A stretch of 64,000 bases of DNA from Promethearchaeota archaeon (GCA_048938445.1 JBHLME010000001.1:27951-91950), one strand, 5' to 3'. Shown: positions 58,197 through 64,000, counted from the stretch's first letter. Numbers and translations are program-made. The notes: generated by a model from the letters alone, not told the origin.

Positions 58197-59000
58197 ATGA
58201 AGATTGCTGTTTCTGGAAAGGGTGGTGTTGGTAAGACTTCTATAGCAGGTACTCTCGCTAGACTCTTTGCCAAGGATGGTTTTAAGGTATTAGCTATTGA
58301 TAATGATTCTGCTATGAACTTGAGTTATAGTTTAGGAATTGATCCCGACATAAAGGAGAAAATAGTACCCATCTCAGAAATGACCGACTTAGTTAAAGAG
58401 AGAACTCAAGTAGAAGGAGCACCTTCTGGTGTATATAATATCACTCCCGAAGTTTCTGACATACCAGATAGATTTAAAGTTCAAGGTCCAGATGGATTAG
58501 AATTACTCGTATTAGGGGGGATTGAAGAACCTGCCACAGGGTGCCTTTGCCCCCAAAATGCTTTAATTCGAACCCTATTATATAATTTATTTGTTAAAAG
58601 AGATGAGGTAGTGGTTGTCGATTTTGAGGCGGGACTTGAACATTTAGGAAGAGGAACCGCAAAAGGAATTGATGTAATGTTAGTAATAACAGAACCATCG
58701 TTAAAATCCTTAGATTTATGCTCAAAAATTATAGATCTATCTAAAAAATTAGGAATCATTAACATATATTTAATAGCAAACAAGATAATTGAAGAATCTC
58801 AACTAGATATAATAAATAAAAAAATTAATGATTGGGAAATTCCACTTTTTCACTCAATTCCCTTTGATCCTGAGTTAGGAAAAGCAGATTTAAACGGTAT
58901 TTCTCCATTAGATTTTGCTCCAAAATCAAAAGCCATGGAATCTATAAAGCTATTGTATTCAAAGTTAAAGAAACTAAAAAGAGAGATATTTGATATGTAA
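58197..59000 (+). CDS. cooC: CooC-type nickel-insertion ATPase
   Basis: 'SGKGGVGKT', 'GCLCP', 'VDFEAGLEHLGRGTA..ID'. Confidence 0.93.
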   Translation: MKIAVSGKGGVGKTSIAGTLARLFAKDGFKVLAIDNDSAMNLSYSLGIDPDIKEKIVPISEMTDLVKERTQVEGAPSGVYNITPEVSDIPDRFKVQGPDGLELLVLGGIEEPATGCLCPQNALIRTLLYNLFVKRDEVVVVDFEAGLEHLGRGTAKGIDVMLVITEPSLKSLDLCSKIIDLSKKLGIINIYLIANKIIEESQLDIINKKINDWEIPLFHSIPFDPELGKADLNGISPLDFAPKSKAMESIKLLYSKLKKLKREIFDM

Positions 59001-59015
59001 ATTTATTCTTCCCTA

Positions 59016-59264
59016 CTATATAACATCAGAAAGATCTAAGTTTTGATCTTCAGAAATATCTTTCCATTGATTTATTGCTTCTAATGCATCTTCTTCATTC
59101 ATTTGTTCAATGGCATATCCCGCGTGAATGATGACATATTTTCCAATTTGAGGGTTTTGGATTAAAGCTATGATGACTTTTTGTTTAATCCCATCAAAAT
59201 CAACTAAAGCTGTCTTTTCATCAAGATTTATTTCCAAAATTTTTCCAGGGATTGCTAAACACAT
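59016..59264 (-). CDS. hypC: Hydrogenase maturation chaperone HypC
   Basis: 'MCLAIPGKI...A.VDF.G', 'G.YV.IHAGYAI'. Confidence 0.96.
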   Translation of the reverse strand: MCLAIPGKILEINLDEKTALVDFDGIKQKVIIALIQNPQIGKYVIIHAGYAIEQMNEEDALEAINQWKDISEDQNLDLSDVI

Positions 59265-60070: not shown

Positions 60071-60240
60071 ACTACACACGGCTTAAAAGCCGTTGCTTCC
60101 TACGAGTGCACAATCGCTTCTAAAACGGATCGGTCTGTGTGTCGTAGAAAACCATTCCATTGTGTTAGGAATGATTCCTCGTTCACGGAGGGTTTATGCG
60201 AGAGGAAATCGAAAAACTGTTTGGTTTTTAAAAATCTTAC
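60067..60240 (-). ncRNA. Putative omegaRNA (reRNA) scaffold of TnpB
   Basis: Inferred from family behaviour: scaffold overlaps the 3' end of tnpB and ends at the right end; 5' boundary uncertain. Confidence 0.5.
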
Positions 60241-61398
60241 CATAATATTAATTGCCGAGTTAAGATCCCGGTCAATATGATTTCCACAGTCGCAATTTAT
60301 AATCCTTTCAAAGAGGGGTCTTTTTTCAAGCTTTCCACATTTACAGCAAGCGCGAGTGGTTTTTGACTCGTCAATTCTTATCACTCTCTTACCTATTTTT
60401 TCAGCCTTATAGGTCAAGAATTCGACAAATCGCGCCATATAGCCCGTGTTATGTACTGAATGGTTGAGTGTCTTGTGTGCTTTTGTTTTTAGTGAATTTC
60501 CCGTTCCCTTTTTCTTTTGAGCCATCTGTTTTACTTTTAAGTCTCCTATAATTATCGTATTTGCCTTAGTATTGCGTACAATCTGCCTTGAAAGCCAATG
60601 CTGGAAATCTTTTAGTTGATGAGCCTGTTTGGTGATCATATTCTTTAGTTTTGTATCATACCATTGCCATCTATTGCTATATTTCTTACAATGGTCGCGT
60701 TTCGACTGGACTTCTTCTATCTTCTTTTTCCAATACATGTCAGCTCGTCTATTGGTGAACTGTATTGATTTTCTTGATAAGTTTATTCCCACGATTTGAT
60801 TGATTCCCAAATCAAAAGCTTGATATAAACCATTGTCTCGATATTCTGGCACCTCAATCTCATAAGTAATAGAAATAAACCATTTATTTCTTGAGAGAAA
60901 CAGTTCTGTCTGCTTGATGGTTTCTTTTGGAATGAGATAGGATGGAAGTTTAAATTCAAGCACTATATTGGAGGGATGTCTATGTGAAAAAACAATTGAA
61001 CTTTTATTTACCCTGAAGCCAGACTGGTTATAACAAAGTGTTGTAAAATACTTTTTTCCTCGAAATCTTGGTGGTCTTGCCTTTTTATCTCCTCTTTTCC
61101 AGAGGTTAAAAAAGGATTTATAGTTCGCATCGAGTTTTTTAAGAGTATTTTGGAGGACTTTCGAATATACCCACCGATATTCGGGATACTGCGTTTTCAA
61201 TGTGGGTAAATTGCTTGATTGATCCACATATCTCAAATAATTTCGCTCTTTTTTTGGTTTAACTTTCTCTTGGTGCCAATTTTTTAACCGTTCCGCCAAT
61301 GCAAAGTTATAAAGGAGTCGACATTTTTCTGATAAATCCCAAAGAACCTGTTTTTGCTCCTTATCAGGAGCGATCCTAATTTTTTGGGTGAGATACAT
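60100..61398 (-). CDS. tnpB: RNA-guided endonuclease TnpB with rearranged RuvC-II
   Basis: HTH 'CRLLYNFAL', RuvC-I AFDLG (D196), 'IIIGDL', 'IDESKTT', Zn finger CCKC..CDC, RuvC-III DRDLNSAINI (D378). Confidence 0.95.
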   Translation of the reverse strand: MYLTQKIRIAPDKEQKQVLWDLSEKCRLLYNFALAERLKNWHQEKVKPKKERNYLRYVDQSSNLPTLKTQYPEYRWVYSKVLQNTLKKLDANYKSFFNLWKRGDKKARPPRFRGKKYFTTLCYNQSGFRVNKSSIVFSHRHPSNIVLEFKLPSYLIPKETIKQTELFLSRNKWFISITYEIEVPEYRDNGLYQAFDLGINQIVGINLSRKSIQFTNRRADMYWKKKIEEVQSKRDHCKKYSNRWQWYDTKLKNMITKQAHQLKDFQHWLSRQIVRNTKANTIIIGDLKVKQMAQKKKGTGNSLKTKAHKTLNHSVHNTGYMARFVEFLTYKAEKIGKRVIRIDESKTTRACCKCGKLEKRPLFERIINCDCGNHIDRDLNSAINIMVRFLKTKQFFDFLSHKPSVNEESFLTQWNGFLRHTDRSVLEAIVHS

Positions 61399-61573: not shown

Positions 61574-61620
61574 AAAAAAAAAAATAAAAATAAATAAAAC
61601 TCGATATTTAACCGAGTTTT
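61574..61620 (-). terminator. Hairpin plus U-tract terminator of the vhu-hdr operon
   Basis: AAAACTCG/CGAGTTTT stem (61596-61620) over the hdrB stop, followed by T-rich runs on the minus strand. Confidence 0.6.
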
Positions 61621-62477
61621 GCTAATATATCATTTAATCGAACCCTATGGAATTTAAGGCCAATATCATCGCCACTAATTCCCATAGCTAGTGCTAATAA
61701 TTCAGTTAAGTATAAAACAGGGATATTATATTCAGTTTCATACTTTTTAGAAAGATCTCGTTGTTGAGTATCGAATTGTTGGAAGCAAGCAGGGCAATTC
61801 GCCACGATCACGTCAGCACCAGCTTTTTTTATGCTATCCATTTTTTTCTTCAATACTTCAGCACCATGCTCTGGGTAGGCATTAGTTACAGCTGAACCGC
61901 AGCATAAGGCGAGTTCATCATAATCTACTACGGTAGCACCAGTAGCAGCAACAATTTCAGCCAAATTCTTGGGCCGCATAGGATCATCAGATTCCATCCA
62001 TTCAACAGGTCTCATGTAATGACAACCTGGATGACAAGCAACTTTTAAACCACTTAATTGTTTAGTTATTGCTCCCTTTACACCATCAAGATTGTTTTTT
62101 ATTACATCTACGAAGTGTTTTACATCAATTGAACCTTTAAATTCCTTACCAATTTTCGCTAATTCAGCATTAACTTTGGCTTTTTTATTAGAATCATGCT
62201 TTAATTGAGTACATACACCACGTAATGTATTTGCACATCCATTACATAAAGAGATAATATCTTTTCCTTCAGCTTCTGCTAAGCAGATATTTCTTGCTCC
62301 AATTGTTAACCATGCATCATTATCAAAACTTTTCATTCCTGTTGGATCAGGACAACATGAAAATGGAGCTTGAGATGTTTGGACTCCAATTTTATCTAGA
62401 ACCTTTCGAGAAGCAGCTTCAATGAAAGGAATTCTATTTCCAATCGTACAACCTTCAAACATTTTAAATTCTGTCAT
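61608..62477 (-). CDS. hdrB: Heterodisulfide reductase subunit B
   Basis: CCG domains: 'GC', 'SCCP', 'CNGC', 'HPGCH', 'CCG', 'CPACFQQFD', 'PVLYLTELLALAMG'. Confidence 0.96.
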   Translation of the reverse strand: MTEFKMFEGCTIGNRIPFIEAASRKVLDKIGVQTSQAPFSCCPDPTGMKSFDNDAWLTIGARNICLAEAEGKDIISLCNGCANTLRGVCTQLKHDSNKKAKVNAELAKIGKEFKGSIDVKHFVDVIKNNLDGVKGAITKQLSGLKVACHPGCHYMRPVEWMESDDPMRPKNLAEIVAATGATVVDYDELALCCGSAVTNAYPEHGAEVLKKKMDSIKKAGADVIVANCPACFQQFDTQQRDLSKKYETEYNIPVLYLTELLALAMGISGDDIGLKFHRVRLNDILAKLG

Positions 62478-62493
62478 TTTTTTTTACCTCGCA

Positions 62494-63000
62494 TTATTTT
62501 AATTTCTTATCCGCTCCAATATTTTTCATTAATGTTTGTAATTCATTTATATCTGGAGCCGCAACAGCTGGTAATCCTAGCTGTTCTCGTCGCTTTTCAA
62601 TCGCAGGTTGTGATGGAATTGCTTTCGAATTCTCATAAATCGCTTTTGCTTGTGAATAGATAAAATCAGGAGCATCTCCTTTAGCAGTGCTTACATTCTT
62701 TAAAAATGAAAAGATCTCTGTCAATTCAATATGCTGAGGACAGACCTCATCACAAGTATCACATACAGTACAACCCCATATGGCAAGCTTTTCAGCACTT
62801 AAGAGTAAGTCTTTATATCCTAATAAAGAACCTAAAATTATATGCCTTGGGTTATAACCAGTCGTACCATAAAAATCAATAGTAACAGCAGCTACTGGAC
62901 AATTATCAGTACACCTGTTACATTGATAACAATACTTGATAGCTTCAGATCCTATGTGATAATCCATAATTTGTTTTCTAAATTCAAAATCTAATGACAT
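62494..63000 (-). CDS. hdrC: Heterodisulfide reductase subunit C
   Basis: CYQCNRCTDNCP and CTVCDTCDEVCP; directly upstream of hdrB; ATG at 63000 (track uses 63009). Confidence 0.94.
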   Translation of the reverse strand: MSLDFEFRKQIMDYHIGSEAIKYCYQCNRCTDNCPVAAVTIDFYGTTGYNPRHIILGSLLGYKDLLLSAEKLAIWGCTVCDTCDEVCPQHIELTEIFSFLKNVSTAKGDAPDFIYSQAKAIYENSKAIPSQPAIEKRREQLGLPAVAAPDINELQTLMKNIGADKKLK

Positions 63001-63047
63001 TTTTTTCACTTTTTTTGAGTTTTTTCCTTTATTTTTTCAATCATTAT

Positions 63048-63122
63048 TGTTGGTTTGAACCCTTGCAAGGGCAGTCATATCCAATCTATAATTTCTATTG
63101 GATATTTCATCCTAAACCAACA
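63048..63122 (-). promoter_or_regulatory. Eukaryote-like SECIS element of vhuU
   Basis: Minus strand AUGA-A-AUAUCCAAU-[AGAAAUUAUAG]-AUUGGAUAU-GA; outer helix UGUUGGUUU/AAACCAACA; side hairpin CCCUUGCAAGGG. Confidence 0.8.
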
Positions 63123-63256
63123 TTCAACTTGCGAGAGTAAATCTCTTCACCCTTCTCATCAACTACGGTGATGTGAGCGGCGCATGATAGTCAGCAGTCA
63201 AAACAACGGACTATCATTTCCAAGACATTTACTACTCCTTCGGGTACATCACTCAT
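63107..63256 (-). CDS. vhuU: Selenoprotein VhuU, small C-terminal subunit of a split [NiFeSe]-hydrogenase (Sec at residue 22), absent from the ORF track
   Basis: MSDVPEGVVNVLEMIVRCFDC-U(TGA 63191-63193)-LSCAAH-ITVVDEKGEEIYSRKLNVGLG*; supplies the L2 motif missing from the upstream large subunit. Confidence 0.93.
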
Positions 63257-63295
63257 TTTTTTAATTCACTTCTATATATTTAATTTTGATTTAGT

Positions 63296-64000
63296 TTATT
63301 TTATCCATGGATCTGGTAATTTCAGTCCATCCAACGCCTTGTCTTCAAAAACTTGTTTGGCAACGTGCATCAAGGATTTCTCGATGCCAGCAATGTTGTG
63401 ATTCGTCGCAACCAAGAGGTTTGCCTTCTCGCAAATTCCTTGCGCATCAGACCAAATATTATACAACAATATTCCTCGTGGTGCTTCTGTCATGCCAACA
63501 CCATTCCCAGCCCTTGGTTCGACATCCAAAGTCTTGCAATCAGGGTTTACGATGTCAGGATCCTTGAGCAATGTCGCGATCATTTCGATTGCTTCCACGG
63601 TCTCGATGATGCGAGCCCAGTGATAGGCAAACGTGTGATGCGGATTGTCTCCAATCTTAGCACGCATGTCCTTGAGGGCCTGATCGGCCAATGGTGTTGC
63701 CATCTTGTCAGCAGCATTGACCATTGCCAAACAGTTCGCACGATAAATTCCATCAGGGTAGCCCGCAGGCTTGTAGTACATGTGCGTGGCATAAGAATGC
63801 TCAGGAATGTGTTCACCTAACGCTTCCAAGTAGTTATGATAATCATAATCGATCTTCTTTCCATCGGGAGTCACGATCCTGATATCACCGTCGTAAATAT
63901 CGTGAACACCATTCTTGGTCATGCCAAAATAATACGTTGGAACGACGCCGACATTCGCGATGACATCAAAATAATCATCAACCACTTTTAAGGCAATTTC
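63296..64000 (-). CDS. vhuA: Group 3c [NiFe(Se)]-hydrogenase large subunit, 5'-truncated by the window edge and lacking the L2 motif
   Basis: 'YHWARIIE', 'GVGMTEAPRG.L', 'ANLLVAT.HN'; frame open to 64000; ends ...LPDPWIK without DPCxxCxxH. Confidence 0.92.
   Translation of the reverse strand, partial: EIALKVVDDYFDVIANVGVVPTYYFGMTKNGVHDIYDGDIRIVTPDGKKIDYDYHNYLEALGEHIPEHSYATHMYYKPAGYPDGIYRANCLAMVNAADKMATPLADQALKDMRAKIGDNPHHTFAYHWARIIETVEAIEMIATLLKDPDIVNPDCKTLDVEPRAGNGVGMTEAPRGILLYNIWSDAQGICEKANLLVATNHNIAGIEKSLMHVAKQVFEDKALDGLKLPDPWIK

Follow-up and report, generated by a model that had tools for sequence, protein, structure and literature searches.

A probable vhuU SECIS element of a Promethearchaeia genome, with a third helix that matches k-junction topology and recurs among Asgard archaea

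Close to one end of the window (the whole 64,000-nt stretch of DNA that was analysed), the minus strand carries an RNA element at 63048-63122 that is very probably the SECIS element of vhuU in a Promethearchaeia genome. In the reading that we prefer, its third helix, placed as in a k-junction, would be an integral and general component of the element, which would direct selenocysteine (Sec) insertion at the upstream in-frame UGA, leaving the terminal UGA to serve as the stop codon. The three-helix anatomy is conserved and covaries among orthologues, is confined to Sec-type genes, and recurs in the SECIS elements of different genes and Asgard families. The SECIS identity, the overlap with the stop codon and the rationale for this overlap are known from the accounts of Mariotti 2016 (PMC4989117) and Huang 2024 (PMC11227280), and the element is a further orthologue in these respects. 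The stop overlap therefore adds nothing new, and the possible new point may be the third helix.

Anatomy of the element and its kink-turn core

The outer helix (helix I) is a perfect 9-bp duplex formed by a 5' arm within the coding sequence and a 3' arm in the spacer, and helix II is likewise a perfect 9-bp stem (Table 1). The side hairpin (helix III) could be drawn either with a CCC/GGG stem or with 4 bp closing a UGCA loop, and an extension by G63072-U63059 is possible. RNAfold of the segment 63130-63040 returned exactly this three-helix fold with a minimum free energy of -22.3 kcal/mol (z = -3.28), and none of 200 dinucleotide shuffles of the same segment matched the native folding energy. 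We do not attribute the three-helix structure to chance, because it recurs in orthologues with compensatory changes. An earlier note on this DNA, made from the sequence alone, had described a SECIS built as a three-way junction, and sequence reading together with RNAfold located each of its structural features where the note had placed them. The junction is real: RNAfold folds it, its outer and apical helices covary, and none of 500 shuffles reached the observed values. The note's assignment as a SECIS with a eukaryote-like AUGA...GA core is also supported and agrees with the published lokiSECIS.

Table 1. Positions of the element's parts and of the neighbouring genes, counted from the first letter of the window
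Feature	Position	Strand	Details
vhuA 3' part, [NiFe] hydrogenase large subunit without the C-terminal Ni-binding motif	63296..64000	-	ORF and PDB sequence matches
vhuU	63107..63256	-	49 codons + stop (50-codon ORF); in-frame UGA 63193-63191, stop UGA 63109-63107
vhuU Sec-coding UGA	63191..63193	-	71 nt upstream of the outer helix's first base
Helix I (outer, lower stem), 5' arm	63114..63122	-	within vhuU codons 45-48; 63122-63114 pairs with 63056-63048
Kink-turn 5' strand	63107..63112	-	U63109-A63107 is the vhuU stop codon
Kink-turn residues		-	G63112 = -1b, partner C63074; bulge G63111/A63110/U63109; sheared-pair purines G63108, A63107
AUGA core	63110-63107	-	sequence reading
Single extra unpaired A	63106	-	boundary of core and helix II
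Helix II	63077..63105	-	9 bp, 63105-63097 with 63085-63077; sequence and RNAfold
Apical loop	63096-63086	-	11 nt, A-rich, AG at the end
GAC trinucleotide	63074..63076	-	GA (63076-63075), 3' half of the tandem G.A pairs, plus C (-1n)
Helix III (side hairpin)	63059..63072	-	CCC(U)/(A)GGG stem 63071-63060; GC in the loop
Helix I, 3' arm	63048..63056	-	vhuU-hdrC spacer
hdrC-like gene, two 4Fe-4S motifs	62494..63009	-	ORF; Fer4_8 E 1e-11
hdrB-like gene, two CCG domains	61608..62477	-	PF02754 E 6e-29

Other types of SECIS elements were searched for in the same region. An Rfam scan of 62000-64000 at E<=10 returned no SECIS family, only chance-level hits to mir-194 and an S15 leader. There is no bacterial-type SECIS hairpin directly after the Sec UGA, because the 74 nt concerned (63196-63123) fold no better than shuffled sequences (z = 0.49; 133 of 200 shuffles fold as well). 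On sequence reading, the euryarchaeal asymmetric GAA/A internal loop with its G-C clamps is absent from 63048-63122. We also rejected a kissing interaction of the side loop with the apical loop, for which no conserved complementarity was found, and a GNRA reading of the side loop, in which the fourth base is often not A.

The core can be read as a kink-turn when the G and A of AUGA are numbered 1b and 2b and the three bases before them (N-A-U) are taken as the bulge. In the window copy, the closing pair is G63112-C63074, the bulge is G-A-U, and the tandem G.A/A.G pairs are formed by G63108 and A63107 with G63076 and A63075. The extra A at 63106, a residue not found in a textbook kink-turn, separates this core from helix II. 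The closing pair (-1b/-1n) was of the Watson-Crick type in all 131 of 131 simply parsed cores (G-C in 121, C-G in 7, A-U in 2 and U-A in 1), and the conserved GAC is therefore the GA together with the C of the closing pair. The -2 and -3 positions beside the closing pair appeared by eye to pair inconsistently; a 3-bp C helix (UAG/CUG) at this place was rejected on the grounds that these positions pair inconsistently among the orthologue rows.

Just 3' of the closing pair, the non-bulged strand gives rise to the third helix. Wang 2014 (PMC4005666) describes the k-junction as a three-way junction based on a kink-turn, as in TPP riboswitches, with the non-bulged strand of the kink-turn carrying the third helix. 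At the sequence level, we found the tandem G.A/A.G pairs, the 3-nt loop and the Watson-Crick closing pair of such a junction, and at the level of secondary structure its third helix. The topology of the whole element, with a third helix joining a kink-turn, therefore matches that of a k-junction. In three dimensions, the element may adopt the k-junction geometry, with a third helix coaxial with the C helix, A-minor hydrogen bonds across the strands and a tight kink.

Gene context, orthologues and covariation

At the window's end, the minus strand carries the four-gene row vhuA-vhuU-hdrC-hdrB. The vhuA fragment is cut by the end of the contig and the window and terminates at TAA 63298-63296. 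Because Pfam at E<=0.001 gave no family for either the VhuA fragment or VhuU, the identity of VhuA was taken from its best PDB sequence matches, 9sfi_g (E 1.6e-56, residues 206-417 of the 418-aa chain) and MvhA 5odc_F (E 8e-42). With its internal UGA read as Sec, the following small ORF encodes the C-terminal Ni-binding motif missing from the large subunit, D-C-U-x-x-C-x-x-H, with Sec at codon 22. It is therefore vhuU, since it carries the nickel-binding motif with Sec at the first Cys position; in three Cys homologues (L079-L081), the codon aligned with the Sec UGA is TGT or TGC. The Sec UGA and the stop UGA are 84 nt apart.

The start of hdrC is likelier to be ATG 63000, preceded by GTGA, than the GTG 63009 proposed by the ORF finder, a choice made by eye from the orthologue flanks. 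The 3' end of the SECIS lies 47 nt before this ATG. Downstream of 88 Sec-type vhuU genes, we found hdrC without a T5 run in 48 cases, a T5 run without hdrC in 35, both in 2 and neither in 3. The window's locus belongs to the group with hdrC and no T5 run, and no terminator-like site was scored within 62900-63400. The earlier note had placed the element between vhuU and hdrC in a probable polycistronic mRNA, and the position holds: there is no oligo-T run, and the order vhuA-vhuU-hdrC-hdrB is conserved. The spacer context fits co-transcription of vhuU with hdrCB, for which it is indirect evidence.

Of the 80 loci collected with VhuA as the query, 11 (L173, L175, L204, L216, L217, L226, L232, L239, L245, L246 and L250, on Promethearchaeia MAG contigs) show a different arrangement, in which a truncated vhuA ending in ...DPWIK/D is directly followed by hdrC with neither vhuU nor a SECIS in between. 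These copies of the hydrogenase would depend on a VhuU from another locus, for example from a free-standing copy like that on contig C158 of the present genome. Further along the window, a gene for a 432-aa protein of the TnpB/IS605 OrfB type lies about 210 nt downstream of hdrB (60100-61398, minus strand), with Cas12f1-like TNB, OrfB_IS605 and HTH_OrfB_IS605 domains. A hypC/hupF-family hydrogenase maturation gene (59016-59264, minus strand) and a gene for a MinD/ParA-type P-loop ATPase (58197-59000, plus strand) are also near the hydrogenase-hdr cluster.

The host is a Promethearchaeia (Lokiarchaeia) MAG with an assembly of 4.63 Mb in 256 contigs and 29.6% G+C. It encodes SepSecS (378 bits). 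The best tRNA-Sec match with the Rfam model reached 39.5 bits against a cut-off of 47, the candidate being split over a contig break, and ARAGORN called no tRNA-Sec in the window or the whole genome. The candidate region, where the end of C108 and the start of C157 share a 73-nt overlap, holds a gene resembling a tRNA, which has a UCA anticodon, a long variable arm and CCA and lies immediately upstream of SepSecS (C157:291-1448). On inspection by eye, about 50 nt appear to separate its 5' acceptor strand from the D-arm region downstream, as an insertion or intron between them would do.

We collected orthologues by a six-frame VhuU search of the class, which gave matches containing a single in-frame TGA in 140 of 161 genomes. 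The 90 fetched loci and the genome's own second copy (C158) comprised 88 Sec-type and 3 Cys-type genes. A strict three-helix parser, which tolerated up to one mismatch in the apical stem but none in the outer helix or the side hairpin, accepted 82 of the 88 Sec-type elements and failed on 6. Among the 82 parsed elements, the core read ATGA in 74, TTGA in 6, CTGA in 1 and GTGA in 1, and the 3' core dinucleotide was GA in 58 and AA in 19. Helix II had 9 bp in 74 and the apical loop 11 nt in 56. An extra nucleotide between the core and helix II was present in 31 of them, including the window copy (A in 29), and absent in 51. Folded individually, most vhuU orthologues, in a number not tallied, also adopt these three helices.

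The MAFFT alignment A1 comprised 79 distinct sequences pre-selected by the parser, so that its measures lean towards structure; 85.6% of its cells were paired, as opposed to 73.8% in column shuffles and 31-50% with slid partners, and none of 500 shuffles reached any of five measures. Changes on both sides were found in 7 of 8 pairs of the outer helix, 9 of 9 of the apical helix and 4 of 5 of the side hairpin. Two outer-helix pairs switch at synonymous third codon positions, in a Val codon (GUU/GUA; UA in 51 rows, AU in 11) and a Gly codon (GGU/GGC; UA in 38, CG in 24), with matching changes in the non-coding arm. RNAalifold independently recovered the outer and apical helices and only one pair of the side hairpin. 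The C-G pairs of the side hairpin are near-invariant (65-74 of the 79 rows) and show few double changes, and because this stem is mostly conserved in sequence, its pairing rests on few compensatory events.

We also built R1, a covariance model that covers the entire junction; run on 92 loci from various genes and families, it yielded 64 matches. In the R1-fitted alignment of these mixed genes and families (A2), which also leans towards structure, 82% of cells were paired, as opposed to 51% in shuffles, with double changes in all 22 of 22 pairs. The outer and apical stems thus covary strongly in both A1 and A2, the check by which the earlier note had proposed that its reading be judged. An unbiased sample was provided by 80 loci of close relatives (Promethearchaeota/Promethearchaeia, including Loki_b31 and Loki_b32) fetched by VhuA alone: 68 were matched by R1 over its full length, at a constant position, 1 was cut by the contig end, and 11 had neither vhuU nor an R1 match. 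The note had named the retention of the structure in Cys-only genes as evidence that would speak against a SECIS. No such retention was seen, as R1 matched none of 5 homologue loci with Cys or without a UGA, and the element is restricted to Sec-type genes.

Role of the third helix and fate of the terminal UGA

A pattern scan of the host genome identified 13 lokiSECIS-type elements: 2 with vhuU, 4 with vhuD/mvhD-like genes containing two Sec codons, 1 preceded by a selD-like ORF, 5 with small ORFs carrying UxxU, CUU or other Sec motifs, and 1 with an unidentified gene. All 13 parse as the same junction, in which 0-5 nt separate the GA or AA from a hairpin and the outer helix comes next, and at least 4 of the elements outside vhuU match R1 end to end (E 3e-9 to 7e-6). 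The R1 search of this genome scored 150 of 6308 first-look candidates and cannot serve as a census, because it missed known elements on C53, C113, C117 and C204. Among the vhuD orthologue loci with the motif, 28 of 29 parse as the junction and the remaining one is cut by a contig end.

The same architecture extends over the phylum. In a sample of 201 genomes, 30 loci were fetched from five other Asgard families with G+C contents up to about 0.7, of which 28 are Sec-type vhuU genes. The distance from the Sec codon to the stop is 84 nt in all 28, and the stop is UGA in 25. The strict parser accepted 21 of the 28, and in 18 of these the core coincides with the stop. In the 7 others, we recognised by eye a longer apical part, the GAC and a GC-rich hairpin with GC in its loop. 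The side-hairpin stem is CC/GG, and the loop contains GC in 79 of the 82 class vhuU elements, typically as UUGCAU, UGCA or CGCAA. As a control for chance, tails were scored for a hairpin with 4 bp or more combined with an outer helix with 5 bp or more, and 81 of 82 real tails had both, as opposed to 287 of 1640 shuffled ones. The earlier note's hunch that the side hairpin might be a new feature was borne out in that the hairpin exists, is conserved and occurs generally, without being special to vhuU. As judged from these comparisons, the third helix appears to be an integral and general part of the Asgard SECIS element rather than a peculiarity of vhuU.

On a locus from another family, the vhuU SECIS ends at 799, and a second full-length R1 match (L073:1013-1090, plus strand) lies about 215 nt further downstream. 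In the host genome, contig C53 holds three SECIS elements within 1 kb (11863, 12432 and 12786) and C113 two within 0.7 kb (15526 and 14866), each preceded by a small ORF whose in-frame UGAs belong to motifs such as UGUU, CUU and UxxU. Across the class, vhuD/mvhD-like genes with two in-frame UGAs are highly amplified: a single genome gave as many as 17 matches, and the present one gave 14.

What the third helix might do is a separate question. We tentatively propose, as a possible reading, that the Asgard SECIS elements could be k-junctions, in which a canonical kink-turn with a 3-nt bulge, of the kind bound by archaeal L7Ae, is combined with an obligatory third helix as a second recognition site, and that eukaryotic SECIS elements might have lost this helix once SBP2 took over. 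The second site would consist of the CC/GG stem and the GC(A) loop. The factor that presumably reads the element could be the archaeal Sec elongation factor, a substitute for SBP2, or the ribosome. If this proposal is correct, constructs and search models without helix III would be incomplete, which might be one reason why a Lokiarchaeal SECIS failed in M. maripaludis. Every SECIS element examined shares this third helix, the conserved nucleotides and a covarying kink-turn closing pair, across several selenoprotein genes and six Asgard families and in a stretch that the current models of Asgard SECIS elements treat as an unconserved internal loop. A functional helix would alter the picture of a 'transitional' SECIS between archaea and eukaryotes, provide a sharper descriptor for selenoprotein searches in Asgard genomes, and offer a testable site in a system without a known SECIS-binding protein.

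Alternatively, helix III and the outer helix might be a scaffold, or a leftover, holding the kink-turn, with recognition limited to the core, helix II and the apical loop. Outer-helix sequences indeed differ freely between gene families, and models confined to the core, upper stem and loop find 85.1% of about 1,438 genes (1224 sequences) according to Huang 2024 (PMC11227280). A scaffold, however, need not keep particular nucleotides, whereas the CC/GG stem and the GC of its loop are kept across gene families, six Asgard families and G+C contents of about 0.3-0.7. We therefore regard the scaffold explanation as unlikely.

The stop codon of vhuU lies within the AUGA core, as the earlier note had claimed (63109-63107). 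Among the 88 Sec-type class genes, the stop is UGA in 76, UAA in 10 and UAG in 2, and the core UGA is the vhuU stop in 73 of the 82 parsed elements, the others being located 5-34 nt further downstream. The vhuU SECIS would recruit the Sec decoding machinery and direct Sec insertion at the in-frame UGA that precedes the stop by 84 nt. By the time a ribosome translates the last vhuU codons, helix I and the core would already be unwound. The signal could then not act on the terminal UGA, which would escape recoding and presumably be read as stop. The distance of 84 nt is found in 87 of the 88 class Sec-type genes, and it is 81-87 nt in the Cys homologues; this spacing may merely reflect the conserved length of the C-terminal peptide.

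It is quite improbable, in our estimate, that the terminal UGA is partly unprotected and sometimes read as Sec, giving a product a few residues longer. The frame continues past the stop as AAU-AUC-CAA-UAG, so that the next in-frame stop is four codons on and read-through would add 3 residues. [NiFe] hydrogenase large subunits lose a C-terminal extension during maturation, and read-through would probably be harmless because the peptide after the His would be cleaved off. Neither is a UGA stop obligatory, as 10 of 88 orthologues use UAA and 2 of 88 use UAG. Against read-through stands the ribosome itself, which on reaching the stop must have unwound helix I and the core, as well as the minimal distance for recoding that Mariotti 2016 (PMC4989117) deduced from the pattern of stop codons.

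Very improbable is the idea that the side hairpin is a separate element beside the SECIS, such as a hairpin for mRNA 3'-end formation, stability or processing or a regulator of hdrC translation: although it is GC-rich in a genome of about 30% GC, lies in the intergenic spacer 47 nt before the hdrC start and shows little covariation in its stem, it is nested within the covarying outer helix, occurs both before hdrC (48 loci) and before an oligo-T run (35 loci), follows the SECIS elements of unrelated genes (vhuD, selD and small Sec proteins) at the same 0-5 nt from the GA, has no terminator-like site scored around it in 62900-63400, and is missing, as is the remainder of the element, from the 11 vhuA-hdrC spacers without vhuU.

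Comparison with known SECIS elements and k-junctions

The closest relative of the element is the lokiSECIS of VhuU.1 described by Mariotti 2016 (PMC4989117), with which it shares the gene family, the 9-bp stem, the 11-nt A-rich loop ending in G, the AUGA core and the overlap with the end of the coding sequence, where AUGA supplies the UGA stop. The earlier note had suggested that the stop overlap may be new; it was published for VhuU.1 in that work, and Huang 2024 (PMC11227280) repeated it, calling the overlap of SECIS and stop frequent. The main text of Mariotti 2016 (PMC4989117) further proposes, from the stop-codon pattern, that stop UGAs near a SECIS escape recoding through a minimal-distance constraint, which is essentially the note's idea that the ribosome melts the SECIS. 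The same text describes the loop-final G as ultraconserved and the dinucleotide after the stem as GA, or AA in VhuU. The window copy differs in having GA, like 58 of the 82 parsed orthologues, and in its extra A after AUGA. The main text of this account mentions neither the outer helix nor the side hairpin, although its supplement may do so.

Huang, Xiao and Zhang 2024 (PMC11227280) define the Asgard eSECIS-like type I by a GA_[G/A]A core, an upper stem of 7-15 bp and an apical loop of 8-20 nt, and the present element has all of these. Their lower-stem motif of frhA, [U/C]GG_C[C/U][A/G], is found in our outer helix as UGG/CCA. Their published models, as set out in the text, comprise only the core, upper stem and apical loop, and the stretch between the core and the lower stem is given as an 'internal loop' without conserved nucleotides, whereas we observed a conserved CC/GG hairpin with GC in its loop. 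The main texts of Mariotti 2016 and Huang 2024 contain no description of the third helix, which their supplements or figures may show. It is likewise absent from the portions seen of a 2026 review (PMC13188914), Sun 2021 (PMC9723677) and Peiter and Rother 2025 (PMC11881835), and a full-text literature search together with the text of the Huang 2024 supplement, figures aside, gave no description.

Methanogen SECIS elements, as presented by Peiter and Rother 2025 (PMC11881835), resemble the present one in being archaeal and 3'-located, in operating without SBP2 and in having short GC-rich helices beside an asymmetric loop. They differ in their GAA_A loop with G-C clamps, and the architecture of our element is another. 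The same study reports that a Lokiarchaeal SECIS was non-functional in Methanococcus maripaludis, which speaks against a functional role of the present element. No SBP2 has been reported in Asgard archaea by Mariotti 2016 (PMC4989117) or in the literature that we consulted.

Eukaryotic type I SECIS elements share with the present element the AUGA...GA kink-turn core, the unpaired A's in the apical loop, the two flanking helices and the action on a distant upstream UGA. By contrast, the element here has no match to an Rfam SECIS family, a helix II of 9 bp, a third helix in the 3' strand, a canonical 3-nt bulge, a Watson-Crick closing pair and an overlap with the coding sequence.

The k-junction of TPP riboswitches (PMC4005666) was compared as a secondary-structure topology, its sequence and function being unrelated to those of our element. 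Between the closing pair and helix III, the SECIS elements have 1-5 unpaired nucleotides. The riboswitch junction, as described there, and the present element agree in having the G.A and A.G pairs on the 3' side of the loop and a conventionally paired helix on its 5' side.
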